A stretch of DNA of 64,000 nt from Hyphomicrobiales bacterium (GCA_021775475.1 JAJFHS010000053.1:44271-108270); one strand, 5' to 3'. Counted from the first letter of the stretch, positions 35,778 to 51,913 are shown. Program-made: numbers and translations. The notes: generated from the sequence alone by a model not told the origin.

Positions 35778-38057
35778 ATGGACCAGTCAACACCTCACAA
35801 GCCAAATCGATGGCGACGATTTTCCCAGTGGGACGAGCGGCCTTTAAGGCTGGATAATTTTGCTGTTGATGATCCCGAAAACGGTTTTTCCGCGATGAAC
35901 GGCGCTAACGATCCCCAGCCCGACATTGAAGTTAAGAACGGGCGCATTGTCGTGATGGATGGGGTCGGAGTTGCTGATTTCGATATGATTGACATGTTCA
36001 TTGCCCGCCATCACCTTGATGTCGCCACCGTGGTGGAGACCATGGCAATGCCGTCAGCTGAAATTGCCCGCATGCTGGTGGATATGAACGTGCCGCGAAC
36101 CGATCTGGTAAAGCTCGCCCACGGGCTCACCCCGGCGAAGCTGGCCGAGGTAGTGGCCCAATTAACGGCAATGGAGCTATCCTTTGCATATTCCAAAATG
36201 CGCGCGCGCAAAACACCGGGAAACCAGGGCCACGTCACCAACGCCAAGGATGACCCATTGCAACTGGTGGCTGACGCCGCCACCGCCGTTGCCTTTGGCT
36301 TTGATGAAATTGAAACCACCATGCGGGTGTCACGCAATGCCTGGTCCAATGCTCTTGCCTGTTGCGTCGGTGCCGCCGTCGGGCGCTGGGGCACGTTGTT
36401 TCAGTGTTCGAGTGAAGAAGCCGAAGAGCTGCAAATCGGCATGGCGGGATTTTCATCTTACGCCGAAACCGTTTCTGTCTACGGCACCGAAAAAGCCTTT
36501 ATTGATGGCGATGACACACCCTGGTCCAAGGCATTCCTGACCAGCGCTTATGCTTCACGCGGCATAAAAATGCGCTGCACATCAGGTGCTGCTGCTGAAT
36601 TGCTGATGGGCTTTCATGAAAAAAAATCGCTGCTTTATCTTGAAGCGCGGTGTTTGTGCATGCAAAGGGCCATGGGCGCGCAAGGAACGCAAAACGGCGG
36701 CATTGATGGTGCACCGCTGGCCGCCAGCATAGCCGGTGGCGTGCGTGAGTTGATGGCGGAAAACCTGCTTGCCGTTTGGCTCGATCTCGAATGTGCATCG
36801 GGCAATGATGCGCGTAGTTCAGAATCAGAAATTCGTATTGGCGCCAAAATTTTACCGTACCTAATCTCAGGCTCAGATTTTATCTGCTCGGGCTTTGGCA
36901 CTATCCTAAAATATGACAACTCCTTCAATGCCTCACTGTTCAATGGCGAAGAGCTGGAGGAATTTCTGGTGCTCCAGCGCGATTTCGAAGCCGATGGCGG
37001 CCTCGCCCCGGTTGACGAGGCACGTATTCTCGACGTGCGCAGCCGGGCGGTCGATGCCCTGGCAGCGGTGTTTGAAGAGTTGGATCTGGGCTCACCTACA
37101 GAGCATATGAAAAACAGTGTGGTGGCAGCTTCAGGCTCTGATGAAACCGAAAGCTATATGCCGCGCGACGTTGCATTGATCAGTGACAAGATCAAAACCC
37201 GTGGCATCACTGTCGTCGATGTTATCAAGGCGCTGGCAAAACGCGGGTTTAATCAGGAAGCGGAGCATCTGTTATCGCTGGTAAAACTCAGAGTGTCCGG
37301 GGATTACCTGCAAACCTCGGCAATAATCAGAAATGGCCGCGTCATTTCCGCTATTAACGATGCCAATGATTACAGCGGGCCCGGCAGCGGCTACCAACTT
37401 AGCGAACAACGCCGCGAGGAGATTATCAACATTCGCGATCAACTCACCCGTGATGCTGTTTTGCATAAGGAAAAAACTTTTCAGACACTTGAAACCACAC
37501 AAATCACCTATACAAAAGTAACCGATGCCGAGCGTGGCGAACGCGACGATGAGGTCGTCATCGGCATCAGCCCGGCCTTTGGCCTCAAATTATTCCGTAC
37601 CACTGGCGACCATCCGCTCAGTCAGGTGCTGGCCGAACTGATGGCGGGCATAAAAGCCAAAGGGTTGCGGCCGCGAATTGTGCGTTTTCACCACACCGCT
37701 GACACGTCTTTTTTAGGCTTAAGTGCCGCCAGCCTGTCGGGCTCAGGCATTGGCATCGGCATTCAGGCCAAGGGAACCGCCGTCATTCATCACATCGACC
37801 GCTTGCCGCATAATAATCTCGAGCTGTTTTCCAACGCCCCCATTACCCGGCTTGAACATTACCGCAAGTTTGGCGAAAATGCTGGCGACTATGCCAAGGG
37901 CATTCTGCCAGAACCTGTTGTTGTGCCAACGCGTGGCGAGGCTTTGGGCGCACGGTTTCACGCCCGTGTCGCTCTGATATATGCAATTGAAACCTCACTG
38001 ACAGAGGACGAAAAGCTGCCTGAAGAAATCGACGTTCAGTTTGCGGGAGAAAAGTGA
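35778..38057 (+). CDS. B12-dependent diol/glycerol dehydratase, fused large (PduC-like) + medium (PduD-like) subunits
   Basis: The first ~555 aa are collinear with PduC (FDMIDMFIARH, EIARMLVDMNVPR, SYAETVSVYGTE, DDTPWSKAFL, GDYLQTSAI). After a linker, the C-terminal ~200 aa match the PduD core (VVIGISPAFG, LSGSGIGIGIQAKGTAVIHH). Confidence 0.85.
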   Translation: MDQSTPHKPNRWRRFSQWDERPLRLDNFAVDDPENGFSAMNGANDPQPDIEVKNGRIVVMDGVGVADFDMIDMFIARHHLDVATVVETMAMPSAEIARMLVDMNVPRTDLVKLAHGLTPAKLAEVVAQLTAMELSFAYSKMRARKTPGNQGHVTNAKDDPLQLVADAATAVAFGFDEIETTMRVSRNAWSNALACCVGAAVGRWGTLFQCSSEEAEELQIGMAGFSSYAETVSVYGTEKAFIDGDDTPWSKAFLTSAYASRGIKMRCTSGAAAELLMGFHEKKSLLYLEARCLCMQRAMGAQGTQNGGIDGAPLAASIAGGVRELMAENLLAVWLDLECASGNDARSSESEIRIGAKILPYLISGSDFICSGFGTILKYDNSFNASLFNGEELEEFLVLQRDFEADGGLAPVDEARILDVRSRAVDALAAVFEELDLGSPTEHMKNSVVAASGSDETESYMPRDVALISDKIKTRGITVVDVIKALAKRGFNQEAEHLLSLVKLRVSGDYLQTSAIIRNGRVISAINDANDYSGPGSGYQLSEQRREEIINIRDQLTRDAVLHKEKTFQTLETTQITYTKVTDAERGERDDEVVIGISPAFGLKLFRTTGDHPLSQVLAELMAGIKAKGLRPRIVRFHHTADTSFLGLSAASLSGSGIGIGIQAKGTAVIHHIDRLPHNNLELFSNAPITRLEHYRKFGENAGDYAKGILPEPVVVPTRGEALGARFHARVALIYAIETSLTEDEKLPEEIDVQFAGEK

Positions 38058-38485
38058 TGGACGATGAAAAGCTGGAAGCGCAAGATTACCCGCTAGCCGA
38101 AATGCGTCGTGATCTGGTTCGCGGTCGCCGGGGAAAATCGCTCGATCAACTTGATCTGGCAGCGGTTGAAAACGGCGATGTGGTAATGGAAGATCTTAAG
38201 ATTACCGCCCGCGCCCTCGAATTGCAGGCCAAGATTGCCCGCACCGGAAACCGGGAAAAACTGGCGGAAAATTTTGAACGCGGCGCCGAACTTGTCGAAG
38301 TTCCTCAGGACTACCTGATGGAAATCTACGAATTATTACGACCCGGTCGCGCCCGCGACAAACATGTTTTGGAGAAAGTTGCCGAAAACCTGCGGGCCAC
38401 CTACAATGCCAACCACATGGCCAGATTTATCGAAGAAGCCGCTGAAGTCTATGAGGCGCGCGGCCTCTTTGCATCGAGATTTTAA
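38057..38485 (+). CDS. Diol/glycerol dehydratase small subunit (PduE-like)
   Basis: DYPLAE, DLKITARALELQAKIA, LAENFERGAELVEVPQDYLMEIYELLRPGR match the PduE/DhaB3 pattern. There is a TGATG overlap with the upstream gene. Confidence 0.8.
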   Translation: MDDEKLEAQDYPLAEMRRDLVRGRRGKSLDQLDLAAVENGDVVMEDLKITARALELQAKIARTGNREKLAENFERGAELVEVPQDYLMEIYELLRPGRARDKHVLEKVAENLRATYNANHMARFIEEAAEVYEARGLFASRF

Positions 38486-38504
38486 CAAGGAGGAAAGAGA
38501 TAAC

Positions 38505-39197
38505 ATGAGCTGGAAAACAGCCTATCGCTCCATTTACTATCAAAACGCACCGGAGCCCGATGATCTTGATCTCAAAGCAAACGAGACCGCCCTTCTGGTC
38601 ATTGATGTACAAAACACCTATCTTGAACGCCCGGATAAAAATACCCTGTCCGGCGAAGCTTTAAGCGAATATGACGCCTGGACACCTTTTCATCAGCGCA
38701 TGAACGAGAGTGTTATTCCCGGAACGGCAGAACTATTGCGATTGTTTCGAGCCAAAAATATCGAATGCTTGTTCGCCCGCATTGCGTGCCATACCGAAGA
38801 TGGCCGTGATCGTTCCTTGAGCCAGAAAATGCCCGGGTGGAACAATTTGCTATTGCCGAAAAATCAAGAGCCTTCGCAAATGGTCGGCGATCTCGCGCCC
38901 GTCGGCGATGAGATTGTCGTTACCAAAACCACAGACTCGGCCCTGACCGGTACCAATCTGAGATTGATACTGCACAACCTTGGCATCAAAAACGTAATTT
39001 GTTGCGGAATTTTTACCGATCAATGCGTCTCGTCAACCGTGAGGAGCCTGGCGGACGAGAGTTTTAACGTGGTGGTTGTCGACGATTGTTGTGCTGCTGG
39101 CAGCGATGAGTTGCATCACAAAGAACTTGAAATCATCAACATGATTTACTGCCACGTGGTATCGCGACAGGAGCTGAAGGAGATGATGGGGCTTTAG
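38505..39197 (+). CDS. Isochorismatase-family cysteine hydrolase (amidase-like)
   Basis: LLVIDVQNTY (Asp) and CCGIFTDQCV (Cys) motifs. AAGGAGGA RBS precedes ATG 38505. The ORF-track start at 38364 overlaps pduE out of frame. Confidence 0.75.
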   Translation: MSWKTAYRSIYYQNAPEPDDLDLKANETALLVIDVQNTYLERPDKNTLSGEALSEYDAWTPFHQRMNESVIPGTAELLRLFRAKNIECLFARIACHTEDGRDRSLSQKMPGWNNLLLPKNQEPSQMVGDLAPVGDEIVVTKTTDSALTGTNLRLILHNLGIKNVICCGIFTDQCVSSTVRSLADESFNVVVVDDCCAAGSDELHHKELEIINMIYCHVVSRQELKEMMGL

Positions 39198-39213
39198 AGC
39201 CTAAAACGAAAGG

Positions 39214-39242
39214 TGTCAAATCCAACTGGTCTGATGTCAAGA
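39214..39242 (+). promoter_or_regulatory. Two TGTCAA(A/G) direct repeats 21 bp apart upstream of the ABC substrate-binding gene
   Basis: TGTCAAAT at 39214 and TGTCAAGA at 39235. The core and spacing are the same as the repeats at 46673/46694. Confidence 0.4.
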
Positions 39243-39372
39243 CGCGAGGTTGCAGAATGCTCTAGTCTTTGGGACGGTGGAGAATTAAAAAAATTATCAA
39301 ACAGCAAACCGGCAGTTACGCAACAGTTCTGTAATCATCTTCAAATCAGGTTTGCCTAAAGGGAGATAGACA

Positions 39373-40533
39373 ATGCTGAAATACCAACTTTCAAGACGTA
39401 ATTTTCTTCAACAAACTGGCGTGTGGGCCGCTGCGGCCTCATTTGGTGGTCTGCCCAATCTGGCTTATGCCGCTTCGGACCGCTCAAAAGAGCTGAACAT
39501 CTATTGTTGGGAAGGATATAATTCTGATGATGTGCTTGATCCTTTCCGCAAAGAGTTCGCTGCCAAGGTTCGTGCTGAAGGCTTAACCTCTGATCCTGAT
39601 GCCGTAAACAGATTGCGCGCTGGTGAAACCAAAGTCTGGGATATCATCAACGTCAACAATCCCTGGGCGCGCGAAATGATGTATCCTGAAGGCCTGATAA
39701 AACCCATTCCCCGCGAACGCTTTGATCCTTATTATGACAAAATGATGCCAGCCTTCAAGCCACCGTACAAGTGGGCGATGGATGCAAAAGGCAAGGATCT
39801 TCTGGGCATGACCCAGCGCTTTGGCCCGTTCTCCTTTGTCGTCAACACCGATAAAATCAGCCGCAAAATGGCTGAAGACCAGGGCTTCAAACTATTCCTT
39901 GATCCGGCAATGAAGGGCCGTTATGGCATTTTGACATATGATAACTGGAACATTTATCACATGTGCATCGCCGCTGACATCGATCCGTTCAGAAAACATA
40001 CAAAGGCTGAGATTACCAAGTTTGGTGAAGTTGCCAAACAGATCTTCAACGGCGCCAAAAACCTCACCGACGATCTCGTGGCCATGAATCTTGCTCTGAT
40101 CAATGGCGAAATTGATGCTTATTTCACCGGTGGCACCTACACAGCGTCTCCGGCACGACTTGATGGTGCCAAAAATATTCGCGGTATCACGCCGAATTCA
40201 GGCCCCATGGGCGGCAAAGGCGGCATTGTCTGGATTGAACTGACCTCGGTTGTCAACAATCCCAATCCTTCGCCATTGGCAGAGGATTTCCTCGAATATG
40301 TCCAGCGCCCTGATGTTTCCAAAAAAGTCGCCTTCGCTGAAGGCACCTATAATCCCGTTACCCAGATGGGAAGTCAGGAAGTATTGAGCACGTTTTCGAA
40401 AGAAGAACTCGATGCCATTCAATGGGATTCCCTCGAGCAGGAAATGGCTAATTCGGTTGATTATGACATCAACCCTGATTACGCTGAAATGTATGAGTTG
40501 TATTCTGCTGCCAAACGCGAACGTAAAACTTAA
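39373..40533 (+). CDS. ABC transporter periplasmic substrate-binding protein (PotD/PotF-like) with Tat-type signal
   Basis: SRRNFLQQTGVWAAAASFGG signal, 386 aa, polyamine-type SBP character, followed by ATPase and two permease genes. Confidence 0.75.
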   Translation: MLKYQLSRRNFLQQTGVWAAAASFGGLPNLAYAASDRSKELNIYCWEGYNSDDVLDPFRKEFAAKVRAEGLTSDPDAVNRLRAGETKVWDIINVNNPWAREMMYPEGLIKPIPRERFDPYYDKMMPAFKPPYKWAMDAKGKDLLGMTQRFGPFSFVVNTDKISRKMAEDQGFKLFLDPAMKGRYGILTYDNWNIYHMCIAADIDPFRKHTKAEITKFGEVAKQIFNGAKNLTDDLVAMNLALINGEIDAYFTGGTYTASPARLDGAKNIRGITPNSGPMGGKGGIVWIELTSVVNNPNPSPLAEDFLEYVQRPDVSKKVAFAEGTYNPVTQMGSQEVLSTFSKEELDAIQWDSLEQEMANSVDYDINPDYAEMYELYSAAKRERKT

Positions 40534-40617
40534 AATCTCTGAGATAGAGAAACTATCACCGACCAGGGTCAGGGCTCATACAGCTCTGACCCTCAATTAT
40601 ACTAGAGGAAATAAACC

Positions 40618-41694
40618 TTGGTTGAGTTAAGCGAGCCTTTTCTTGAGCTCAATGGCATCACCAAACGCTTTGGCAATTTTGTCGCGGTGGATGATGTCAA
40701 TCTTGAAATTACAGAAGGTGAGTTTTTCACGCTTGTAGGGCCATCAGGATCCGGCAAAACCACCATGATACGGATGCTGGTTGGCATGGACGCACCTTCT
40801 GACGGCGAAATGCGCCTGCAGGGCCGGGTTATGAACGATTTGCCGGCAAACAAACGTCCAACCTGCATGGTGTTTCAGTCGCTGGCCCTGTTTCCGCACA
40901 AATCCGTTGGTGAAAACATCGAGTTTTCGATGAAAATCACCGGAAAAGATAAAGTCAAAAGACGCGCGCGAGTTGACCAGTTGATGGAGCAACTACGGCT
41001 GCCCTTATCTTATTACGAAAAAAGCGTTACTCAATGTTCCGGTGGTGAACGCCAGCGCATAGCCCTGGCCCGCGCCCTGGCGTTCGATCCGCAAATTCTG
41101 TTTTTCGATGAACCCTTGTCAGCACTTGATTTCAGGTTGCGTAAAGCGCTGGAAAAAGAGCTTAAAGATATTCACCGCGAAACCGGTAAGACATTTGTCT
41201 ACATCACTCATTCGCTTGAAGAAGCCATGGTCATGTCAGACCGCATCGCCATTATGCGCGAAGGCCGCATCGTCCAGATTGGCACGCCACATGAAATTTA
41301 TAACAATCCCAAAAATAAATTCGTCGCCCAGTTTATGGGGGAAGTGAACACCCTTTCGGTGGAAAAAGCTGGTGAGAATACGCTTCGGGTTACCGGTTTT
41401 GATGACATTTTTACGGTCACGGATGATCTTTCCGATTTCACCACCGGGTTCTTGATCATTCGCCCCGAGGTTATGAAAATTGGCCGATCAGCTGCTGACA
41501 TGAAAAACAAAATCAAGGGCATCGCCTTTAATGATTACGCGCTTGGCTCGCGGGTGCAATATCAAATCAGAATTGAGCACTTTGACGAACCGTGGCTGGT
41601 AGAGCGTCTGCAGGACGAACCCTATGAAGGCCAGCGCGGCGACACCGTCGACATTGGCTGGCGACCTGAAGATTCGATCCTGGTGAGTAATTAA
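40618..41694 (+). CDS. ABC transporter ATP-binding protein (PotA-like)
   Basis: Walker A GPSGSGKTT, signature CSGGERQR, Walker B ILFFDEP. A TTG start is preceded by AGAGGAAA. Confidence 0.9.
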   Translation: MVELSEPFLELNGITKRFGNFVAVDDVNLEITEGEFFTLVGPSGSGKTTMIRMLVGMDAPSDGEMRLQGRVMNDLPANKRPTCMVFQSLALFPHKSVGENIEFSMKITGKDKVKRRARVDQLMEQLRLPLSYYEKSVTQCSGGERQRIALARALAFDPQILFFDEPLSALDFRLRKALEKELKDIHRETGKTFVYITHSLEEAMVMSDRIAIMREGRIVQIGTPHEIYNNPKNKFVAQFMGEVNTLSVEKAGENTLRVTGFDDIFTVTDDLSDFTTGFLIIRPEVMKIGRSAADMKNKIKGIAFNDYALGSRVQYQIRIEHFDEPWLVERLQDEPYEGQRGDTVDIGWRPEDSILVSN

Positions 41695-41699
41695 TCAAA

Positions 41700-42575
41700 A
41701 TGGCAAAGACCTCACAGAGCAATATGAGCAGCTGGTTGAAACAGCCAGGCGTTCTGGCCGCCCTGCCCGCTTCATTGTTCCTGTTAATCGGATTTGCCGG
41801 GCCACTTTTATTGGTGGTGGCATACAGCTTCATGCCGTCGAAAACGTTTACGTTGCTGCAGGCACCGACAATTGAAAACTACTCGTCAATAATCAGCGAC
41901 AGCTATTACATATCATTTTTCTGGTCGCTGGCGATGGCGCTGACAACCGTGGTTTTGTTGTTCATCATTTGCTACCCGATTGCCTACGGCATGGCCAAAT
42001 TATTCAACAAGTGGGCCAACTTGGTGACCGCGCTTATTGCCGTTCCCATTCTTATTTCCGAAAACATCAGACTGTTTGGCTGGGTTTTGATCTTGCTCAA
42101 AAACGGTGTTTTTGATGGCTCAATGCAAAGCCTGTTTGGTCTGTCGATCTCCGGTCTCCTGTTTACAGTACCCGCAATCACCCTCGGGCTGGTCTATGTC
42201 TACCTGCCGTTTATGCTGTTCCCGCTGGTTATCGGCATTTCCATGGTTCCTGAAACCCTGAAAGAAGCAGCATCTGATCTTGGTGCCACACGCTGGCAGA
42301 TATTTCGCGAAATTGAGTTGCCACTGTCGATGCCCGGGTTGATGATTGGCGGCATTTTAACGTTTGTGCTGGTGTTGGGATCTTTGGCCGAGGCTAAAAT
42401 TCTTGGCGGACAGGCCATTGTCATGATTGCTGACGATATTGAATCGGCCTTCACCTTCGCTCAGAACTGGCCCAAGGGTTCAGCCTTGTCAGTGCTGCTG
42501 ATAGCTCTTTCCGGCATCATTGTTTTCTTATTATTCAGGCGCGTTGACCTTGACCGCGTCATTGGCAGGCGGTGA
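41700..42575 (+). CDS. ABC transporter permease (PotB-like)
   Basis: 6-TM permease with the EAA-type loop EAASDLGATRWQIFREIELP. Confidence 0.85.
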   Translation: MAKTSQSNMSSWLKQPGVLAALPASLFLLIGFAGPLLLVVAYSFMPSKTFTLLQAPTIENYSSIISDSYYISFFWSLAMALTTVVLLFIICYPIAYGMAKLFNKWANLVTALIAVPILISENIRLFGWVLILLKNGVFDGSMQSLFGLSISGLLFTVPAITLGLVYVYLPFMLFPLVIGISMVPETLKEAASDLGATRWQIFREIELPLSMPGLMIGGILTFVLVLGSLAEAKILGGQAIVMIADDIESAFTFAQNWPKGSALSVLLIALSGIIVFLLFRRVDLDRVIGRR

Positions 42576-42579
42576 GGAT

Positions 42580-43398
42580 ATGAAAGCATCACGTTCACAA
42601 AACCTTTCGCGCCGCTTTATAATCCTGTGGACAGGGGTGGTCATTGCCTTTTTGTATGTGCCAATGATAGCTGTTGTCCTGGCATCATTTTCCAAGCAAC
42701 GCTATTTCAAATTCCCCATCCAGAGCTGGACCGACAAGTGGTATCAAAAAGCTTTTTCTTCACTGTCAGTACGCGAATTATTATGGACATCCTTGTCGGT
42801 CGCCGCATTGGTCACTATCATCTCGGTGGTACTGGCTTTTTTTGGTGCGCTGGCTTTTGCCAGGTATGACTGGAAGGGACGCAAGCTCTATCAGCGTTTG
42901 ATTTTACTGCCGATTTTCTTTCCTCAAGCCGTACTTGGCCTGGCAATGTTATTGTGGTTCTCGGCCATTGGCGTTATCACCAGTTGGCAGACAGCGGTGT
43001 TTGCACATCTGGTGTGGATTACCCCCATTGTCATTTTGATCATGTCTATACAGGTTTACAGCTTTGATCCGGCACTGGAAGAAGCAGCGTATGACCTCGG
43101 TGCCACGCGCTGGCAGGTGTTGACGGAAATAACCCTGCCAATCCTGTCGCCGGGGATAATATCGGGTGCAATTTTTGCATTTTTACTGTCGTGGGGAAAT
43201 TTCCCCTTATCACTTTTTACCACCGGCGCCGACCAGACCATCCCTGAATGGCTCTATGCCAAAATGGTGTCGGGCTACACCCCCATGGTGCCGACACTGG
43301 GGTCTTTAACCTTATCAAGTGCCGCTGTATTTTTGTTGATCGCCTATATTATCTGGCTGGCAATAAGCGCGCGGCAGCGGCGAATGGAAAACAGATAG
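42580..43398 (+). CDS. ABC transporter permease (PotC-like)
   Basis: EAAYDLGATRWQVLTEITLP loop. ATG 42580 is 4 nt after the upstream stop and is preferred over the overlapping start at 42520. Confidence 0.85.
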   Translation: MKASRSQNLSRRFIILWTGVVIAFLYVPMIAVVLASFSKQRYFKFPIQSWTDKWYQKAFSSLSVRELLWTSLSVAALVTIISVVLAFFGALAFARYDWKGRKLYQRLILLPIFFPQAVLGLAMLLWFSAIGVITSWQTAVFAHLVWITPIVILIMSIQVYSFDPALEEAAYDLGATRWQVLTEITLPILSPGIISGAIFAFLLSWGNFPLSLFTTGADQTIPEWLYAKMVSGYTPMVPTLGSLTLSSAAVFLLIAYIIWLAISARQRRMENR

Positions 43399-43416
43399 AC
43401 GCGAAAGGAAATCAAA

Positions 43417-44181
43417 ATGCTGACATCAATAGCAGGCAGATCAGTCATCGTAACCGGTGCAAGCAAAGGCATCGGCAAAGGAATTGCCCGCGTATTTGCC
43501 AATCAGGGCGCAAAAGTCCTGGTGGTCTCGCGCACACTTGATGAGGCGCAAGCCGTAGCCGAAGAAATCGGCAATGGAGCTTCCGGGTTTTCCGCCGATA
43601 TTGCCAGTTGGGAGCAAACTCAAGCCATGGCCGAGGCCGCGGTTGAGCGCAATGGCGGGCTTGATATTCTATGCGCCAATGCCGGCATTTATCCCCAAAC
43701 CAATATTGAAGATATGGACCCGGAAGAATGGGATCAGGTAATGGACACCAACCTCAAGGGTACGTTCCTGTCGGTTAAAGCCTGTCTGCCGCACTTGAAA
43801 AAATCCGATCAGGGCCGTGTCATCCTGACATCATCAATCACCGGGCCCGAGACCGGTTTTCCCGGCTGGTCACATTACGGCGCCAGCAAATCCGGCCAGC
43901 TTGGGTTTATGCGCACCGCCTGCATCGAACTGGCAAAACACGCCATCACCATGAATGCGGTTTTACCCGGCAACATCTATACCGAAGGCCTCGATGATCT
44001 GGGCGATGACTATCTCGCAACCATGGCCGCATCCATTCCGTTGAAAAAAATTGGTGCCGTCGAAGATATCGGCAATGCGGCGTTGTTTCTGGCATCCAAG
44101 GAAGCCAATTATATCACCGGCCAGACAATCATTGTCGATGGTGGCCAGATATTACCGGAATCTCTCGAAGCGCTGGAATAA
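43417..44181 (+). CDS. Short-chain dehydrogenase/reductase (candidate amino-alcohol dehydrogenase)
   Basis: TGASKGIGKGIA, NAG and YGASK motifs. The substrate assignment rests on context only. Confidence 0.8.
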   Translation: MLTSIAGRSVIVTGASKGIGKGIARVFANQGAKVLVVSRTLDEAQAVAEEIGNGASGFSADIASWEQTQAMAEAAVERNGGLDILCANAGIYPQTNIEDMDPEEWDQVMDTNLKGTFLSVKACLPHLKKSDQGRVILTSSITGPETGFPGWSHYGASKSGQLGFMRTACIELAKHAITMNAVLPGNIYTEGLDDLGDDYLATMAASIPLKKIGAVEDIGNAALFLASKEANYITGQTIIVDGGQILPESLEALE

Positions 44182-44374: not shown

Positions 44375-45439
44375 CTAGGTTAGTTGCGCCCGCAGCTGTC
44401 GCGGCGACACGCCGGTCCAGCGGCGTACTGCGCGTGAAAATGCGCTGAGTTCTGAATAGCCCAGCAGAAAAGCTATCTCAGAAAACGGCAGATGACGTTG
44501 TTTGATGTACATCAGCGCCAATTCGTGCCGGGTGGTTTCGATCAGGTCCTTGTAAGCCAGGCCTTCGTGCGCCAGTTCACGCCGAATGACGGAAGCTGAT
44601 AATTTTAAACTTAAAGCCACCTGCTCCATAGAGGGATAGCCATCGGGCAACTGCGTGCGAATGGTATTTTGTATGCGGCCTATCAAAGATACCGGCTGGT
44701 CGTTTTCCTTACCCACCGTCTCCAGACACGTCTGCATGATCGTCATCAATGTCAGATCGCGACCCGGCATTGAGCGTGTCATTGTATCGGGTTTGAACAA
44801 CAGGGCGTTCACGGGTTGAGAAAAATACACCGGCGCGGAAAATGCGGTTTCATGATCTTTCCAGTTTTCCGGTTTGGCGTGTTCAAAATGAACTTCTTCA
44901 GGTATCCAGCCCGCGCCACAGCCTTCGCGTATAACGTTTAAAAACATGCCAAGCGAAAGTTCAGCATCCTGGCGGCGCTCGATAATATCGGGTGCCTGAA
45001 TTTGATATTCCAGCCGCATCAACCCGCTGTCATCTTCACACAACGACATGATCGACGATTCCTGATGATAACGAAAAAGCCCCACCAAATTTGCCAGTGC
45101 AACGCCTAATGTGGGTGAAGAAATTGCAGCATAACCCCACAGGCCTAAGTCTTTTGGTGAAAACTGATTGCCAAACCACAGGCCGAAATTATCGTGTTTG
45201 GATATACGTGAAGCTTCTTCAAACAAACGGCAAAATGAAGACAGGCTCAACTTCAAGGTAGGCTCGCCCGCCATTTCCGGGGCAATGCCAGCGTGACCAA
45301 AGGTACGATCAACATCACCACCCATTTTCTCGATGAACTCAACCATGCCTGTGGCAGCAGCGGCAAGCACAGCAGGGTTTGAGCCGGCAACACTTTGCCC
45401 GCAAACCGGACGTTCGAGATAGTGGGTAGCAATATTCAC
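44375..45439 (-). CDS. AraC family transcriptional regulator (EutR/OruR-like architecture)
   Basis: C-terminal double HTH (LLGYSELSAFSRAVRRWTGVSPRQLR) and a ~240-aa N-terminal sensor domain. Confidence 0.85.
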   Translation of the reverse strand: MNIATHYLERPVCGQSVAGSNPAVLAAAATGMVEFIEKMGGDVDRTFGHAGIAPEMAGEPTLKLSLSSFCRLFEEASRISKHDNFGLWFGNQFSPKDLGLWGYAAISSPTLGVALANLVGLFRYHQESSIMSLCEDDSGLMRLEYQIQAPDIIERRQDAELSLGMFLNVIREGCGAGWIPEEVHFEHAKPENWKDHETAFSAPVYFSQPVNALLFKPDTMTRSMPGRDLTLMTIMQTCLETVGKENDQPVSLIGRIQNTIRTQLPDGYPSMEQVALSLKLSASVIRRELAHEGLAYKDLIETTRHELALMYIKQRHLPFSEIAFLLGYSELSAFSRAVRRWTGVSPRQLRAQLT

Positions 45440-45531: not shown

Positions 45532-46545
45532 TTAGCTGAAATCTGCAATATACCTTCGACACAAGGCATCGGTTTCGCGACTGTATGTCACCCCCATCGA
45601 CTGGGCGAGATCGGTTTCCGAGTGCGATCCGATCCAGGCCACCAGCAGCAATCTTCGCAACATGACGAAAGTGGGGATTTCCGCTTCATCTTCTTGCGGT
45701 AAATCGATGATTTTACGATAGCCCTTGACCCAGGATTTGAGCAGGTCGGGGACTTCCGGCCGGGTTTCAAAGAACGACACCGTTGTGGCGCAATCATACA
45801 TCAGCCAGCTGAACCCACAGTCGTCAAAATCAATAACCTTGGTAGTGTCACCATCAATAAGCAGGTTTGCCAGCCGCATGTCGCAATGTATCAGACCAAA
45901 ACGCTCAGATGATTTTCCAAATTCCGCCAATCGATGCTCAATCAAATCGACGGTTTTGCCAAACAGCTCGATGCGCTCAACGTCCAGACCCATGCCATCG
46001 CGCCATCGCCCCCAATGAGGATTTGCCCCTAGAGAGGTGTCAAAATCCCAGGTAAGGCGCTCAAAACCCTGCGGCAGTTCCCACGATTTCACATGCGCAT
46101 GCATGCGCGCAGCCGTTTCTCCCAACACTTCAAAGGGTGCGCGCAAATCATCTTCTTCCTCAGAAGGCTCAATGCCGCTTTCCCATTCAAACAGCACCAC
46201 CTGGCGGGGATTAGACATGCTCGCATGGCTCACCGTTTGAATGTCTTCACCATCGAGCCCCGCTACAACTGCCGGTGTAATGGCGGTCCCGCTTGCCCGC
46301 AAGGCTTTGGCCCAGGCAAGCTCTGAAGCGATGGCGTTTTTGCTATGATATCCTTCACGATGAACCCGCAAGGCCCAGCACTGCTGTGAATGAGGAGCTT
46401 CGATCCTGTAGGTTGCATTTTCTGACAGGTTAATCATGCGGGCACTAGCACCCGCAGGCAGTGCAAAACGGGCAAGAGAGGCCTCTGCAAGATGTTGCAG
46501 GCAAATCAACTGTTCTTCGTGAGAAAGCGCGTCAAATGCAGACAT
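45532..46545 (-). CDS. APH-fold phosphotransferase (candidate amino-alcohol kinase)
   Basis: Brenner motif HCDMRLANLLID and the metal-binding IDFDDCG motif. 337 aa. Confidence 0.8.
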   Translation of the reverse strand: MSAFDALSHEEQLICLQHLAEASLARFALPAGASARMINLSENATYRIEAPHSQQCWALRVHREGYHSKNAIASELAWAKALRASGTAITPAVVAGLDGEDIQTVSHASMSNPRQVVLFEWESGIEPSEEEDDLRAPFEVLGETAARMHAHVKSWELPQGFERLTWDFDTSLGANPHWGRWRDGMGLDVERIELFGKTVDLIEHRLAEFGKSSERFGLIHCDMRLANLLIDGDTTKVIDFDDCGFSWLMYDCATTVSFFETRPEVPDLLKSWVKGYRKIIDLPQEDEAEIPTFVMLRRLLLVAWIGSHSETDLAQSMGVTYSRETDALCRRYIADFS

Positions 46546-46749: not shown

Positions 46750-48021
46750 GTGAGCATCGAAAAACTGGAATTCCTGGAGCAGTCGAAAACCTTCTGGAAT
46801 CCGAACAAAACCCAGTTCTGGCAGGATGTCGGCGTTGATCTGGTGATCGACCGCCGCGAAGGTTATTGCCTCTATGACATGGATGGCAAGCGCCTGATTG
46901 ATGTGCACCTCAATGGCGGCACCTACAATCTCGGTCATCGCAATGCCGAACTCATAGAAGTCCTCAATGCCGGTGCCAAACGCTTTGACATGGGCAATCA
47001 TCACTTTCCGGCGCTCGCGCGCACCGCTCTGGCCGAAGCGCTGGCCAAATGTACGCCTGACGGGCTGCAATACACGATTTACGGTGCAGGTGGCGCCGAA
47101 GCAGTTGAACTGGCGATTAAATCCGCCCGTCACGCCACCCAAAAGCGCAAGATTGTCTCGATTATCAAAGCCTATCACGGCCACTCCGGTCTGGCGGTCA
47201 AAACCGGCGATGAGCGCTTTTCCAAGACATTTTTGTCCGAAGACACAGTTGGTGAATTTATACAGGTACCGTTCAATGACCTTGAAGCGATTGAAAAGGC
47301 TCTAAAGGGTAAGGATGTTGCCGCCATCATTATGGAAACAATCCCGGCAACCTACGGATTTCCGATGCCGCACGAGGGCTACCTGCCTGCCGTCAAAAGC
47401 CTGTGCGAACGCTATGATGCCCTGTATATCGCTGACGAAGTACAAACCGGCCTCATGCGTACGGGTGAACTCTGGGGCATCACCAAATATGGTGTCACAC
47501 CGGACATTATGGTGATTGGCAAGGGCATTACCGGCGGCATGTATCCGATTTCATGTTGTGTCGTCAACGAGCGCGCTGGCCAATGGCTCAAGCAGGACGG
47601 CTTTGCCCATATGTCAACTGCGGGTGGGGCCGAACTTGGCTGTATTGTCGCGTTGAAAGTGCTCGAAATCACCCAGCGACCCGAAGTTGCCTCCATGGTG
47701 GCTTATATCTCCGATTTCATCCGTGCAGGGCTCGATGATATTCAGGCACTTTACCCCGATTTTTTCACCGGCATTCGCCAGAACGGTGTCATTATGGGGT
47801 TGGAATTTAATGACCCAGAAGGTGCCAAGCCGGTGATGAGGCATCTTTATGAACATGGTGTCTGGGCAATTTTCTCGACCCTTGATCCCTCCGTGTTGCA
47901 GTTCAAACCCGGCATTCTCATGACCCAGAGCCTGTCTGAAGACCTGCTGGCCCGCGTCGAAGTCGCCATCGGTCTGGCGGCTAAAGAAGTTATGGGCAGC
48001 GGACGCAGAGGCAAGATGTAA
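46750..48021 (+). CDS. Class-III aminotransferase-fold PLP enzyme (candidate amino-alcohol O-phosphate phospho-lyase)
   Basis: DEVQTGLMRTGELWG, and GKGITGG with the PLP lysine. GTG start with GAGAGG upstream. The phospho-lyase role is inferred from pairing with the kinase. Confidence 0.8.
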   Translation: MSIEKLEFLEQSKTFWNPNKTQFWQDVGVDLVIDRREGYCLYDMDGKRLIDVHLNGGTYNLGHRNAELIEVLNAGAKRFDMGNHHFPALARTALAEALAKCTPDGLQYTIYGAGGAEAVELAIKSARHATQKRKIVSIIKAYHGHSGLAVKTGDERFSKTFLSEDTVGEFIQVPFNDLEAIEKALKGKDVAAIIMETIPATYGFPMPHEGYLPAVKSLCERYDALYIADEVQTGLMRTGELWGITKYGVTPDIMVIGKGITGGMYPISCCVVNERAGQWLKQDGFAHMSTAGGAELGCIVALKVLEITQRPEVASMVAYISDFIRAGLDDIQALYPDFFTGIRQNGVIMGLEFNDPEGAKPVMRHLYEHGVWAIFSTLDPSVLQFKPGILMTQSLSEDLLARVEVAIGLAAKEVMGSGRRGKM

Positions 48022-49601
48022 TGGACCAGGCCATCGCCAACCTCGTTGACATTTCCGCATCCCCCGCCGCCATGCATGCCGCAGCCGACATGGTGCTGGA
48101 ACGGGCGAGATGGGCATCGCAGGTATTTCAACGTTATGACCGCGACACAACGCTTGCCATTGCCGACGCGGTAGCAAAGGCTGCCCACGACAATGCGGCA
48201 AAATATGGTGATTGGGCAGTTAAGGAAACCGGCTTTGGCGTAGCTGATCACAAGACGCTAAAAAACCAACTTACCGCTAAGCCTCTGGTTGATTATTATC
48301 GCGATCGAGATTTTGTTAATCCGAGATTTGATGCCGAAAAAAATATTATCGAAGTGCCCAAACCCGCCGGTGTGGTGTTTGCGCTTGCGCCCTCCACCAA
48401 TCCGATTTCAACCATCTACTTCAAGGTTTTATGTGCCCTGATGACCCGCAATGCCATCGTCATCAGCCCGCATCCCGCCGCCCGTGAATGCTCCGTTGAT
48501 GCCGTCAACACATTGATAAAAGCCGCCGAAGATGCCGGCGCACCGGAGGCGGTAATTCAGGTCATAGAGCATCCCACTCTGGCGCTAATTGATGAATTTA
48601 TGGGCTCGGAAAAAACCAATGTCATTCTCGCCACCGGCGGCAGTGCCATGGTGCGGGCAGCGTACTCATCCTCCAACCCGGCCATTGGTGTCGGCCCCGG
48701 CAATGCACCGGTTTTTGTCGAGGCAAGTGCTGATCTGAAACAGGCGGCTGCCATGATTGTCGAGAGTAAATCATTCGATAATTCAGTTTTGTGCACCAAT
48801 GAATCGGTGCTGATCACCCTGGCGGAAATATCTCAAGCGCTTTTGCGCGAGCTTGGCCGCAACAAATGCCATATCTGCAAACCCGACGAAGTTGAATTGC
48901 TGCGCCGCTATCTGTTTCATGATCGCGGCTTTAACGTCGAAGCGCTTGGCCGCGATGCTACATGGATTGCCGAACAAGCCGGGTTCAAGGTTCAGCGCAA
49001 CACCAAAATCCTGCTCACGCCCATAGATAAAATTGGTGTCGGTGAAGTATTGTCGCGCGAAAAACTGTGTCCGGTACTAGGCTATTATGTCGCCACCAGT
49101 GTAACCCAGGCCATAACTCAGGCCCGCGCCTTGTTGCGCTATACCGGAGCGGGACATTCGGCTGCCATCCACTCAAACGACAATCAGACAATTATGGATT
49201 ATGCCGCCGGTGTCGAAGTTTACCGCGTTATTGTCAATGCACCGTGCAGTCAAGGTGCTGCCGGATTTGCCACCAACCTTGCACCTACCTTCACCATTGG
49301 CACCGGCTATTTTGGCCGCTCCTCAGTGGGCGAGAATGTCGGCCCACAGCATCTGGTAAACTGGACCCGTATCGCCTGGAACAGCCAGGCCAGTGGCAAT
49401 ATTAATGATTTTCAAACAGCAAGGCTCAACCACCGTGGCAAGTTGCCAAAAGCACCTGCCGATGGTGTGCCGGGACAATCGCGGGTAAGACGCGAGGTGT
49501 CTGATAACTCTCCCCGGACACCGGCGCGCACCGACCCTGAATTACGCGAAGAAATTCGCCGCATTATTGCCGAAGAGCTGCGCTCGGCGCTGAAGGATTG
49601 A
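48021..49601 (+). CDS. CoA-acylating aldehyde dehydrogenase (EutE/PduP family) with a C-terminal encapsulation-peptide-like helix
   Basis: ALDH fold with the catalytic Cys in FDNSVLCTNES. A Pro/Arg/Ser-rich linker is followed by ELREEIRRIIAEELRSAL at the extreme C-terminus. TAATG overlap with the upstream gene. Confidence 0.85.
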   Translation: MDQAIANLVDISASPAAMHAAADMVLERARWASQVFQRYDRDTTLAIADAVAKAAHDNAAKYGDWAVKETGFGVADHKTLKNQLTAKPLVDYYRDRDFVNPRFDAEKNIIEVPKPAGVVFALAPSTNPISTIYFKVLCALMTRNAIVISPHPAARECSVDAVNTLIKAAEDAGAPEAVIQVIEHPTLALIDEFMGSEKTNVILATGGSAMVRAAYSSSNPAIGVGPGNAPVFVEASADLKQAAAMIVESKSFDNSVLCTNESVLITLAEISQALLRELGRNKCHICKPDEVELLRRYLFHDRGFNVEALGRDATWIAEQAGFKVQRNTKILLTPIDKIGVGEVLSREKLCPVLGYYVATSVTQAITQARALLRYTGAGHSAAIHSNDNQTIMDYAAGVEVYRVIVNAPCSQGAAGFATNLAPTFTIGTGYFGRSSVGENVGPQHLVNWTRIAWNSQASGNINDFQTARLNHRGKLPKAPADGVPGQSRVRREVSDNSPRTPARTDPELREEIRRIIAEELRSALKD

Positions 49602-49604
49602 TTT

Positions 49605-50225
49605 ATGGCTGATTTGCGTTCCTTCATATTCATCGACCAGTTGCAGCCGCAAACCATGTCTTATATGGCATCGTGGATGCGCGGCTCCCTGCCGCGCGCG
49701 CATGTGGCAGCCCAGATCATTGAGGTGGCTCCGGGTCTGGATATCGAAAACCTCACCAATATTGCTCTCAAGCACGCTGGTGTTCACGCCGGAATTCTGG
49801 TGGTCGAGCGCCAGTTCGGCTATCTCGAGTTTCATTCCCGCGATACGTCTGCTGTAAGGGAAGCTGCACAAGCGGTGTTAGATAATCTTGGTGCTGAAGC
49901 AGATCATGCCATGGCGCCGAAGATACTCGGATCCAAAATTGTCACGCGTATCGATAACCAGCACGCTTTTTTGATCAACCGCAACAAGTTGGGTTCTATG
50001 GTTCTGGGCGGAGAATCGCTGTATCTTCTCGAAATACAACCGGCATCTTATGCAATTCTGGCAACAAATGAAGCCGAGAAAGCCGCCAATATCAAGGTGG
50101 TTGATTATCGCATGATCGGTGCCAACGGGCGGGTTTATCTCTCAGGCAAAGAATCCGAAATCCGCAGCGCGCGCGAAGCCGCTGAAGCCGCCCTTGGTGG
50201 TTTTGATCAGGGAGAAGCTGCATGA
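49605..50225 (+). CDS. BMC-T shell protein (tandem BMC domains)
   Basis: 206 aa containing two BMC-like halves (EVAPGLDIENLTNIALKHA ...; ILATNEAEKAANIKVV ...). Confidence 0.8.
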   Translation: MADLRSFIFIDQLQPQTMSYMASWMRGSLPRAHVAAQIIEVAPGLDIENLTNIALKHAGVHAGILVVERQFGYLEFHSRDTSAVREAAQAVLDNLGAEADHAMAPKILGSKIVTRIDNQHAFLINRNKLGSMVLGGESLYLLEIQPASYAILATNEAEKAANIKVVDYRMIGANGRVYLSGKESEIRSAREAAEAALGGFDQGEAA

Positions 50226-50635
50226 CCACAGATGCCGTCAGATCCCTGATCCGAGAAGTGCTGGCCGAAGAACTGGGGCGCGTTGCCCGCGAGCGCTCAA
50301 CAACCAAAGAAACTGTCTCGATACAGACTAATAAGGATTTGCAGGCGCTGGTTCTCCATATAGTGGAAATAGCCCGCGACAAATCCATGCGCGACCGCAT
50401 CATCGCAGGAGATCATGTTTTTGTGCTTGAGACCCCGTCGGGTGTATCCGTGGCAAAAACCCCTGCGCCAAACGCCAGCGACGTGGAGCAGATAACAAAA
50501 GGTTTTTTGTCCGAGCGTGCAATAGAAGCCCTTCCCGCCAATACCCGTGTGGTGCAGCTTGGACACGGAGTGCGTTTTACACCGCTTGCCCGCGACCGGT
50601 TGAGACAGCGGAAGATAACAGTTGAAAGGATATAA
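50222..50635 (+). CDS. BMC-locus hypothetical protein with an N-terminal encapsulation-peptide-like amphipathic helix
   Basis: 137 aa. The N-terminal AVRSLIREVLAEELGRV shares the (I/V)(L/I)AEEL core with the AldDH C-terminus. ATGA-coupled to the preceding shell gene. The C-terminal domain is unrecognised. Confidence 0.6.
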   Translation: MTTDAVRSLIREVLAEELGRVARERSTTKETVSIQTNKDLQALVLHIVEIARDKSMRDRIIAGDHVFVLETPSGVSVAKTPAPNASDVEQITKGFLSERAIEALPANTRVVQLGHGVRFTPLARDRLRQRKITVERI

Positions 50636-50637
50636 TT

Positions 50638-50877
50638 ATGGTCAGAGGACGCGTTACCGGCAGACTTTGGGCAACCAAGCGCATTGACACACTCCCCCAG
50701 GGCGCTTTGTTGAATGTAGAGCTGGAAAACGGCACACAGATCATCGCACTGGACCCGCTTGGCTGTGGCGAAGGTGAAGATGTGCTGGTTACTCAAGGCT
50801 CCGTTGCCGCCGGTTATTTTGACGATATCAAAGCCCCCATCGATGCGCTGATTATCGGCTCCATCGATGCCGACTAA
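50638..50877 (+). CDS. BMC-P pentameric vertex protein (EutN/CcmL/PduN family)
   Basis: 79 aa. MVRGRVTGRLWATKR ... ALDPLGCGEGEDVLVTQGS ... IDALIIGSID matches the EutN family pattern. Confidence 0.9.
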   Translation: MVRGRVTGRLWATKRIDTLPQGALLNVELENGTQIIALDPLGCGEGEDVLVTQGSVAAGYFDDIKAPIDALIIGSIDAD

Positions 50878-50917
50878 TAAACATTACGCCATTTTTTAAT
50901 CAAAAGGAGAAAGACAA

Positions 50918-51196
50918 ATGTCAAACGAAGCAATAGGAATGATTGAGACCAGAGGGTTCGTAGCCGCTTTAGCTGCCGCTGACGCCATGGTGAAAGCAGC
51001 GAACGTAAAAATTGTCTCGCGTGAAGAAGTCGGTGCCGGTCTGGTATCCGTGGTTATTCAGGGCGACGTCGGCGCGGTTAAGGCTGCCACCGAAGCCGGT
51101 GCTGAAACTGCCGGACAAGTTGGTGATCTGATATCCGTTCATGTGATTCCACGCCCGCACACAGATCTCGGCAAACATTTTACGGCTAAAAAATAA
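50918..51196 (+). CDS. BMC-H hexameric shell protein (PduA/EutM-like)
   Basis: [27 protein letters not shown] ... GDVGAVKAA is the canonical BMC-H sequence. GGAG RBS. Confidence 0.95.
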
Positions 51197-51217
51197 CCTT
51201 TTGATAACCGGATTTCC

Positions 51218-51240
51218 GCCGGACCCAAATAAGGTCCGGC
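51218..51240 (+). other. Intercistronic stem-loop GCCGGACC-CAAATAA-GGTCCGGC after the BMC-H gene
   Basis: 8-bp perfect GC-rich stem, 22 nt after the BMC-H stop, with no T tail. Confidence 0.4.
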
Positions 51241-51289
51241 TGCTGAAGGCGCAGCAAAGGGATGGCTTTGCCAAAATGAGTGATTACCA

Positions 51290-51913
51290 ATGACTGAACT
51301 ACGCGTTTACCTGCCCATAGAGGACCTGCAACCGCAGTTTGCAGCTTACATGGCCACGCCAACGCGCGCGCGTGGCTATCCGCCATTTGTCGGTGACCAC
51401 AGTCTCATTATTGAAGTGGCACCCGCACTGGCCATCCATCGCGTCACCGACCTGGCCTTAAAGGCTGCACCCGATCTTGAACCGGGAATATTGTTCACAG
51501 AGCGTCATTTTGGCCTGCTTGAATTGCACTCGAGCAAACGTGAAACGGTTATGGCAGCCGGGCAGGCAATTCTCAAAGGCATCAATTGCAAAGCCGAAGA
51601 CCAGCTCAAGCCGCAAATCCTGTTCACCGATATCATCGAAAACCTCTCCGACCAGCATGCAGTCATCTACAATCGCATGCGTGAAGCCTCAATGATCCTG
51701 CCCGGTCAATCCTTGTTGCTCTATGAAATGGCCCCGGCCCTGTTCGCCGCCATGGCCGCAAATGAGGCCGAAAAATCCGCCCCCGACATAACGCTGGTGG
51801 ATGTCCAGATGATGGGGGCATCCGGCCGTATTTCCATGGCGGGAAAAACCGCCGACCTGCAAGTGGCGCAAAAATGCATTAGCCAGGTTCTTGGCGCTGT
51901 TGCCGGCAGGTAG
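51290..51913 (+). CDS. BMC-T shell protein (tandem BMC domains), paralog of 49605-50225
   Basis: 207 aa. LRVYLPIEDLQPQFAAYMA is parallel to LRSFIFIDQLQPQTMSYMA, and AMAANEAEKSA is parallel to ILATNEAEKAA. Confidence 0.8.
   Translation: MTELRVYLPIEDLQPQFAAYMATPTRARGYPPFVGDHSLIIEVAPALAIHRVTDLALKAAPDLEPGILFTERHFGLLELHSSKRETVMAAGQAILKGINCKAEDQLKPQILFTDIIENLSDQHAVIYNRMREASMILPGQSLLLYEMAPALFAAMAANEAEKSAPDITLVDVQMMGASGRISMAGKTADLQVAQKCISQVLGAVAGR

Follow-up and report, generated by a model that had tools for sequence, protein, structure and literature searches.

Why should a coenzyme B12-dependent diol dehydratase be encoded beside a bacterial microcompartment (BMC) for amino alcohols? The question is raised by a 64-kb stretch of DNA (GCA_021775475.1 JAJFHS010000053.1:44271-108270, hereafter the window), whose region of interest, positions 35778-51913, joins the shell and enzyme genes of a Rhodococcus/Mycobacterium microcompartment (RMM) to a dehydratase made of a fused PduCD protein and a separate PduE. 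The locus is of the RMM2 type, also called aminoacetone utilisation microcompartment 2 (AAUM2), which is already catalogued, and its host is an uncultured member of the Hyphomicrobiales. A comparison of related loci showed that the dehydratase is a regular member of the amino-alcohol neighbourhood, and it is very probable that the locus encodes the amino-alcohol pathway usual for RMM2/AAUM2, which the dehydratase module would serve as a conserved accessory in the cytosol.

The window was covered by a listing of open reading frames (ORFs) and by Pfam and NCBIfam scans, and three transcription units were defined from gene spacing across the region (Table 1). Unit 1, on the plus strand, comprises the PduCD-PduE dehydratase, an isochorismatase-fold hydrolase, an ABC importer and a short-chain dehydrogenase/reductase (SDR); unit 2, on the minus strand, an APH-fold kinase and an AraC regulator; and unit 3, on the plus strand, a class-III pyridoxal-phosphate (PLP) enzyme, an acylating aldehyde dehydrogenase (AldDH), a BMC-T, a protein of 137 amino acids (aa), a BMC-P, a BMC-H, a second BMC-T and a terminator. 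PduCD and PduE overlap by 4 bp, the PLP enzyme lies directly upstream of AldDH and shares one base with it (stop/start overlap), and the spacing ranges from -4 to 93 bp through the shell genes. Every gene named in a first-pass annotation of this sequence was found at the coordinates and on the strand given there, including the EutE/PduP-type AldDH, the APH-fold kinase, the class-III enzyme, the SDR and the regulator (all by Pfam or NCBIfam), the fused dehydratase with its PduE and the isochorismatase-like hydrolase. The functions that it had listed as absent, namely Pta/PduL, alcohol dehydrogenase, diol dehydratase (DDR) reactivase and adenosyltransferase, were not found across the whole 64 kb, the remainder of which consists of unrelated genes, and the Rfam scan of the window returned no cobalamin riboswitch and no other RNA. 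Its assignment of the host to the Alphaproteobacteria is also right, because the nearest relatives of the locus lie in metagenome-assembled genomes of uncultured Hyphomicrobiales (93-97% kinase identity).

The proposed RMM-type assignment is borne out by the solved structures that the proteins match best. The SDR matches PDB 6CI8/6CI9 over its full length, which we take to be the (S)-1-amino-2-propanol dehydrogenase of the M. smegmatis RMM described by Mallette and Kimber in 2018, and residues 19-334 of the kinase match 6EF6, presumably the (S)-1-amino-2-propanol kinase of that work. Judged by sequence, the SDR and the kinase are thus close relatives, and likely orthologues, of the aminopropanol dehydrogenase and the aminopropanol kinase. 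The kinase also has a weak match to the kinase part of NCBIfam models in which a kinase is fused to a class-III enzyme. The PLP enzyme adjoins the kinase in most loci holding both, and it received no specific assignment from NCBIfam or PDB. The regulator exceeds the NCBIfam QhpR equivalog cut-off (302 bits against 250) and is predicted to be of the AraC/QhpR-like, amine-responsive type.

The combination of genes has been described before. Axen 2014 defined RMM2 as RMM loci with diol dehydratase genes, for which the compartment "may be bifunctional", and RMM1 as loci devoid of any dehydratase (PMC4207490). Sutter 2021, in Supplementary Data 2, lists 32 RMM2/AAUM2 loci from "a variety of Proteobacteria", including Alphaproteobacteria, and alphaproteobacterial members appear in the shell trees, which use clade names such as Tdp_cinnamon_aRMM2 (PMC8217296). 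The first-pass annotation could not tell whether its combination was catalogued, had proposed a comparison with published BMC catalogues and a synteny search in other genomes, and had held that novelty would fail for a described, widespread locus type. Both comparisons revealed a known and widespread locus, the same gene set being present in at least 12 species-level genomes, and the novelty therefore fails.

Synteny of the dehydratase and the amino-alcohol genes

The neighbourhood was surveyed from two sides. A kinase-anchored sample (the kinase has 5915 homologues at E<=1e-40) took one genome per GTDB species and gave 80 loci of +/-10 kb, onto which the window proteins were mapped; the reciprocal, dehydratase-anchored sample comprised 80 loci from metagenomes, and the sampling is biased towards relatives of the window locus. 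Among the 37 kinase-anchored loci with full +/-10 kb coverage, 28 held the dehydratase, 19 the shell block and 12 both, so that the dehydratase was present in 12 of the 19 fully covered shell loci. It stood without any shell gene within 10 kb in a further 16 of the 37, for instance in six Mesorhizobium genomes, which carry the dehydratase, PduE, the hydrolase, an APC permease and the SDR together with the lyase and the kinase, and in which no shell gene or AldDH was found within 10 kb. The remaining combination, a shell without dehydratase, was seen in 7 of the 37, in two of which the operon runs beyond the covered range.

Gene set and order are identical to those of the window in L005 (Rhizobiaceae), L006 (Hyphomicrobiales) and L017; in L031, L048, L050, L068, L069 and L077 (Aestuariivirga and others), the set is the same and the kinase stands behind the shell genes. 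Overall, the arrangement recurs in Hyphomicrobiales, Rhizobiaceae, Aestuariivirgaceae, Hyphomicrobium, Mesorhizobium and Gammaproteobacteria, over a range of 59-97% kinase identity. From the dehydratase side, 10 of the 14 fully covered metagenomic loci carried the SDR with the kinase and/or the lyase, or the shell block; one carried the SDR only and three none of these (L091, L099 and L116). In sum, the SDR and/or the kinase/lyase accompanied the dehydratase in 11 of these 14. The tightest partner of the dehydratase is the SDR, nearly always downstream on the same strand, and the shell is optional.

These counts bear on whether the dehydratase and the RMM locus are neighbours merely by chance. 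Such a view could draw on Sutter 2021, where PDU (1,2-propanediol utilisation) enzymes lie near only 4 of the 32 RMM2 loci and the dehydratase is deemed unimportant to the locus (PMC8217296), as well as on the shell loci without dehydratase and the dehydratase loci without amino-alcohol genes. However, the aminopropanol dehydrogenase (SDR) is itself the final gene of the dehydratase operon, the arrangement spans alpha- and gammaproteobacterial groups, and the pattern holds in the reciprocal sampling. A chance adjacency is contradicted by the synteny counts and is considered extremely improbable, and the observed synteny contradicts that remark of unimportance. The link is strong and not obligatory, since each of the two gene groups also occurs without the other.

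Some loci depart from the common pattern. In Hyphomicrobium and relatives (L052, L056, L060, L061, L063 and L065), the kinase, SDR, hydrolase and dehydratase are present, and the only class-III PLP match is 24-27% identical to the window lyase, which may have been replaced there by a distant paralogue or be encoded elsewhere. In the marine loci L084-L087 (for example L086, 674-13622), the SDR directly follows PduE, the hydrolase, kinase and lyase are absent, and a divergent operon encodes an AraC regulator, an ABC system of the LIV type, an iron-type alcohol dehydrogenase (Fe-ADH) and an enzyme resembling glutamine synthetase. This gene content suggests that an amine is processed by gamma-glutamylation, in a route coupled to this dehydratase. 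Finally, in L099 (12800-14356) and L091 (17038-18528), the dehydratase lies beside a glycerol-kinase-like kinase of the FGGY family or an FAD oxidase resembling GlpD, with no amino-alcohol genes, and these neighbours suggest glycerol-like chemistry for some members of the clade.

The hydrolase accompanies the dehydratase usually, not always. Its start was placed at the ATG at 38505, which follows an AAGGAGG site 19 bp beyond PduE and does not give the longest ORF. The Asp-Lys-Cys triad (D34-K141-C174) is kept in 80 of 80 full-length homologues, the nearest solved relatives are the biuret/triuret-type amidase 6AZO, YecD and the cysteine hydrolase 6XIX, and no NCBIfam equivalog model matched at its cut-off. 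As for the importer, it had been proposed that a PotD-type ABC system takes the place of a permease. The replacement stands, because Mesorhizobium loci (e.g. L078) have an APC-family amino-acid permease in the same slot, which elsewhere is filled by a LIV-type ABC system; the "PotD-type" label is carried only by a weak NCBIfam match (4e-7) of the binding protein, for which no Pfam match was obtained. An N-terminal SRRNFL suggests that this protein is exported through the twin-arginine (Tat) pathway. Each locus has a single transporter, always of the amine or amino-acid type.

Shell proteins and predicted cargo

Pfam undercalls the 206- and 207-aa shell proteins: it detects a single BMC domain in the former and misses the latter altogether. 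In a sequence search against solved structures, both were recognised as double-domain BMC-T(dp) proteins of the CcmP/CsoS1D kind, with MSM0275 (5L39) and MSM0271 (5SUH) as best matches and, for the MSM0275-type protein, HO-5816, CcmP and CsoS1D among the lower-ranked ones; the earlier count of two BMC-T, a single BMC-H and a single BMC-P is therefore correct. The BMC-H corresponds to MSM0272 and has the KAAN and PRPH facet motifs, and MSM0273 is the sole PDB match of the BMC-P. Thus, the best natural PDB match of each of the four shell proteins is an M. smegmatis RMM protein, and none of the four is of the PduA/B/J/T/U types.

Besides its EutE-type acetaldehyde dehydrogenase match (TIGR02518), AldDH matches the N-terminal part of AdhE (3e-130). 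It ends in an encapsulation-peptide-like helix, ELREEIRRIIAEELRSAL, preceded by a Pro/Arg-rich linker, and this amphipathic C-terminal helix is kept after a variable linker in about 40 shell-bearing loci. A second such helix was found in the 137-aa protein, whose gene between BMC-T and BMC-P had been missed in the first-pass annotation. Here it is N-terminal (SLIREVLAEEL, with R11, E12, L14 and E17 invariant) and is followed by a small middle domain and the C-terminal motif VRFTPLARDRLRQRGI. In about 40 of the 43 loci examined, an equivalent small ORF with the helix and a TPLARD motif occupies the position between BMC-T and BMC-P. No Pfam or NCBIfam match was obtained for this protein, and its AlphaFold2 model (pLDDT 70) found no fold match in PDB.

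Among the locus proteins compared, encapsulation-peptide-like helices were seen only on AldDH and the 137-aa protein. The PLP enzyme, the kinase and the SDR carry no extension, since their alignments to the homologues of shell-less loci run over the whole length. On sequence grounds, AldDH and the 137-aa protein would therefore be the only obvious cargo, and the latter may be an adaptor or scaffold. Mallette and Kimber (2018) reportedly suggested that the majority of RMM enzymes may function outside the shell, and the small predicted cargo fits this suggestion.

The B12 dehydratase and the route of its product

In the NCBIfam scan, the large-subunit model scored 825 bits against a cut-off of 788. 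Residues were read from an alignment to the K. pneumoniae glycerol dehydratase (GDHt) and are given in K. oxytoca numbering. The Ca2+ ligands and catalytic residues (Q141, H143, E170, E221, Q296, D335, S362 and F374) are kept, and the enzyme is probably active. The residues of the C3 pocket are replaced, with S301D, Q336A and T337R (D310, A345 and R346 of the window protein) and the further changes A299G, C302G, I303A and M373S, and exactly these residues recur in 38 of 38 homologues from genomes and in 78 of 80 from metagenomes. The window enzyme thus departs from the Ser301/Gln336 pocket of PduC/DhaB1, which canonical representatives keep. It was previously reported that Ser301 faces the 3-OH of glycerol and that S301A and Q336A change both the Km and the speed at which glycerol causes suicide inactivation (PMC7674605).

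A survey of the pocket across the dehydratase family, based on a search of 1.8 billion representatives, revealed Asp301 also in a large actinobacterial clade of fused PduCD proteins, with Ser/Ala at position 336 and Gln/Leu at 337; the Ala336/Arg337 combination was confined, among the sequences examined, to the proteobacterial clade. No amino-alcohol genes adjoin the actinobacterial enzymes in 3 of 3 contexts examined (L163, 9491-14424; L164; L165), and in one of these the large subunit of a DDR reactivase directly follows PduE. Asp301 alone is therefore not a sign of an amine substrate, and its use as an amine-binding marker was downgraded. No reactivase was found among the proteobacterial dehydratase neighbourhoods annotated.

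As to location, the N-terminal regions of PduD and PduE target these subunits into PDU shells. In the window, PduE is of a short form (the best NCBIfam model is a 139-aa subfamily, and the PduE equivalog aligned only from profile position 39), and the alignment of the fused beta part begins only at residue 49 of PddB and at residue 21 of GDHt beta, so that the N-terminal ~48 residues of PddB are absent. This lack of targeting regions, together with the frequent occurrence of the dehydratase without shells, argues that it is cytosolic. The same evidence bears on the reading of the first-pass annotation, also an option of Axen 2014 (PMC4207490), in which the dehydratase would be encapsulated with AldDH in a hybrid PDU/RMM organelle, one shell serving both 1,2-propanediol and amino alcohols. 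Both routes can indeed end in propionaldehyde, the substrate of AldDH, the dehydratase adjoins the shell locus in the 12 shell loci counted above, and the 137-aa protein with its targeting helix could serve as an adaptor. However, neither PduE nor the fused PduD part has a targeting extension, the same dehydratase operon is equally common without a shell, PduGH, PduO, PduS, PduL and PduQ are absent from the window, the shell proteins are RMM-type and the pocket is unlike that of PduC. This shared organelle is considered distinctly unlikely. The convergence of two independent routes on one aldehyde, put forward in the first-pass annotation, stays hypothetical in view of the missing extension, the shell-less occurrence and the non-canonical pocket, and the dehydratase could act in parallel or in series with the amino-alcohol route.

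A different use of the dehydratase is suggested by its pocket and its operon. It could act on an amino-diol or another C3-substituted diol, such as 3-amino-1,2-propanediol, imported by the amine transporter; the product, aminoacetone if the hydroxyl migrates to C2, would feed the SDR, kinase, lyase and AldDH in series, and the hydrolase would free the amino-diol from an amide precursor. The dehydratase, the amine-type transporter and the SDR do share one operon in nearly all loci, the single transporter is always of an amine or amino-acid type, and the marine loci place the SDR right after PduE, near Fe-ADH, a LIV-type ABC system and a gene resembling glutamine synthetase (of the gamma-glutamyl-amine type). 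Moreover, the residues contacting the C3 substituent are invariantly Asp, Ala and Arg, at a place where Ser301 faces the 3-OH of glycerol (PMC7674605). On the other hand, RMM1 loci function without a dehydratase (PMC4207490), and a literature search for amino-diol dehydratase chemistry or a link between a dehydratase and aminoacetone returned nothing beyond Axen 2014, which counts against this proposal. The actinobacterial clade combines Asp301 with an absence of amino-alcohol neighbours, and once with a reactivase, the two exceptional loci L099 and L091 place the dehydratase among glycerol-type genes, and the normal regiochemistry of diol dehydratases would give 3-aminopropanal, not aminoacetone. 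Such a serial route is regarded as unlikely, and it is equally doubtful that the Asp301/Ala336/Arg337 clade represents a B12 enzyme for an amine-bearing diol, acting in series with the SDR, kinase and lyase and with the hydrolase upstream. A serial route from serinol through acetol to propanediol was set aside, an Asp beside the methyl group being unfavourable; the kinase and the SDR are also reportedly specific for aminopropanol, which was likewise held against it.

In the standard amino-alcohol pathway preferred here, the amine substrate would be imported by the ABC system. By similarity to the characterised M. smegmatis enzymes, the SDR would interconvert aminoacetone and (S)-1-amino-2-propanol and the kinase would phosphorylate the latter. 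The PLP enzyme, as its context suggests, would eliminate phosphate and ammonia to yield propionaldehyde, and AldDH, presumably targeted by its C-terminal helix, would turn this into propionyl-CoA inside a shell with a single BMC-H, a single BMC-P and two BMC-T(dp). The dehydratase, acting in the cytosol, would belong with the hydrolase, transporter and SDR to a conserved accessory module, which accompanies the kinase and the lyase in many Proteobacteria with or without a shell. The most probable role of the dehydratase is to turn a vicinal diol into an aldehyde or ketone that enters the amino-alcohol pathway.

Several points weigh against this pathway. Phospho-lyase activity for the family of the PLP enzyme was not found in the resources searched, and the best named relatives of this enzyme are transaminases; because it has no targeting helix, the aldehyde may form outside the shell. 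1,2-Propanediol may not be a substrate of the dehydratase, because its C3 pocket differs from those of the propanediol and glycerol enzymes, and no reactivase or adenosyltransferase is encoded close to it in the 64-kb window. Five resolvable shell loci (L008, L024, L025, L062 and L071) lack the dehydratase, and the three dehydratase loci without amino-alcohol or shell partners point the same way. Furthermore, no enzyme for NAD+/CoA recycling is encoded, which is a recognised hallmark of RMM/AAUM systems (PMC11626177).

Gene coordinates, significance and known systems

Table 1. Features of the RMM2/AAUM2 locus and of the adjoining dehydratase operon (window positions)
Feature	Position	Strand	Evidence
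Fused PduC-PduD large+medium subunit, 759 aa	35778..38057	+	Pfam Dehydratase_LU 2e-211, Dehydratase_MU 1e-24
PduE/DhaB3-type small subunit, 143 aa	38054..38485	+	Pfam Dehydratase_SU 7e-43
Isochorismatase-fold cysteine hydrolase, amidase-like, 230 aa	38505..39197	+	Pfam Isochorismatase 5e-32
ABC importer, four genes	39373..43398	+	Pfam/NCBIfam
ABC binding protein	39373-40533	+	Weak NCBIfam match
ABC ATPase with TOBE_2 domain	40618-41694	+	Pfam/NCBIfam
Two BPD_transp_1 permeases	41700-42575, 42520-43398	+	Pfam
SDR, final gene of dehydratase operon	43417..44181	+	PDB 6CI8/6CI9 1.5e-87
AraC-family regulator, QhpR-like	44375..45439	-	Pfam Arabinose_bd + HTH_18; NCBIfam QhpR
APH-fold kinase	45532..46545	-	PDB 6EF6 8.2e-83
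Class-III PLP enzyme, presumed aminopropanol-phosphate phospho-lyase	46750..48021	+	Pfam Aminotran_3 4e-73
Acylating AldDH, EutE/PduP type, 526 aa	48021..49601	+	NCBIfam TIGR02518 6e-121
BMC-T(dp), MSM0275 type	49605..50225	+	PDB 5L39 1.9e-88
Conserved 137-aa protein, C-terminal VRFTPLARDRLRQRxI	50222..50635	+	98 homologues
BMC-P pentamer protein, MSM0273 type	50638..50877	+	Pfam EutN_CcmL 3.5e-19; PDB 5L37 5e-22
BMC-H hexamer protein, MSM0272 type	50918..51196	+	Pfam BMC 1e-27; PDB 5L38 6e-39
BMC-T(dp), MSM0271 type, final shell-operon gene	51290..51913	+	PDB 5SUH 4.3e-83
Terminator-like hairpin, 10-bp stem, 7 G-C pairs, with T-run	51896..51933	+	Closes shell operon

Outside the locus, the genes at 52356-58274, right after the shell operon, encode a 460-aa protein with a YcaO domain, a 678-aa BTAD/TPR regulator and a 601-aa calcineurin-like phosphoesterase; in the close relative L003, counterparts of the first two (75% and 84%) also adjoin the shell genes. 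At 8234-11626, on the minus strand, a 1130-aa protein joins an MFS transporter to an acyltransferase and an AMP-binding domain, an architecture like that of LplT-Aas lysophospholipid recycling. Positions 9-4054 encode, in a row, an Orn/Lys/Arg decarboxylase-family protein, a 500-aa protein without Pfam match and an acyl-CoA:6-aminopenicillanate (6-APA) acyltransferase-like (AAT) protein.

As a locus the region adds little, since RMM2/AAUM2, the adjacency of the dehydratase and the idea of a bifunctional compartment are already in print. What goes beyond the literature is modest but real: the conserved dehydratase module, the altered pocket and the restriction of targeting helices to AldDH and the 137-aa protein. 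The catalogue view is corrected: across many alpha- and gammaproteobacterial genera, the kinase and the lyase have a conserved partner in the operon of dehydratase, hydrolase, transporter and SDR, independently of the shell. The findings also point to an uncharacterised subfamily of B12 dehydratases with fused subunits, a remodelled pocket and no reactivase nearby, which is widespread in soil and marine bacteria, including the culturable and genetically tractable Mesorhizobium. That AldDH and the 137-aa protein appear as the only obvious cargo bears on how RMM/AAUM organelles handle four unrelated cofactors without recycling enzymes. An amine-bearing diol as substrate, if true, would provide the missing physiological feedstock for the aminoacetone utilisation pathway and microcompartment.

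PDU systems, in which a PduABJKNTU shell encloses PduCDE, resemble the window in having a B12 dehydratase from this family as well as an acylating AldDH that bears a targeting helix. Nevertheless, the window's dehydratase lacks targeting extensions, has fused large and medium subunits and an altered C3 pocket, no PduGH, PduO/S, PduL or PduQ is encoded in the window, and the shell is RMM-type. A PDU-type reading was rejected on the missing targeting extensions and on the missing PduGH, PduO, PduL and PduQ. Kinase and phospho-lyase routes are known from the 1-aminopropan-2-ol pathway of Pseudomonas and from ethanolamine and hydroxylysine kinases with AGXT2L1/2-type lyases, and they likewise pair an APH-fold kinase with a class-III PLP enzyme to give an aldehyde; to our knowledge, these routes are not compartmentalised and have no link to a B12 dehydratase. 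Natural alpha-beta fused dehydratases of Mesorhizobium loti and Mycobacterium smegmatis were described by Liu et al. 2010, as cited in PMC7674605. They share with the window enzyme the alpha-beta fusion and the separate gamma subunit, and the window protein shares 73% identity with the Mesorhizobium enzymes; the fused enzymes are noted there only as engineering candidates, and neither the amino-alcohol coupling nor the pocket changes were found described.

The closest known systems are the RMM2/AAUM2 loci, with which the window shares the shell set (a single BMC-H, a single BMC-P, two BMC-T(dp)), AldDH, the class-III enzyme, APH kinase, SDR and regulator, the lack of Pta and alcohol dehydrogenase, the proteobacterial host and the adjoining diol dehydratase genes, and its peripheral gene order differs from that of RMM1, as in this subtype. 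The 2021 catalogue regards the dehydratase as incidental (4 of 32 loci), whereas most of the loci sampled here carry it, in one operon with the SDR. No discussion of the hydrolase, the ABC importer or the 137-aa protein and its targeting helix was found in the accessible catalogue text. In the RMM2 loci of Axen 2014, the dehydratase lies on the opposite strand, whereas here it is co-operonic with the SDR, on the same strand.

Finally, the RMM1/AAUM locus of M. smegmatis (Mallette and Kimber 2017, 2018) has clear homologues of the four shell proteins, the kinase and the SDR (E 5e-22 to 2e-88), and the same route from aminoacetone to propionaldehyde has been proposed for it. The PLyase-AldDH-T-x-P-H-T block is collinear with what we take to be the order of MSMEG_0277-0271. 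In contrast, RMM1 is actinobacterial and lacks a dehydratase; its regulator is of the GntR type, its transporter an APC permease and its hydrolases are alpha/beta hydrolases, whereas the window combines an AraC/QhpR-like regulator, an ABC importer, an isochorismatase-fold hydrolase and a fused B12 dehydratase.

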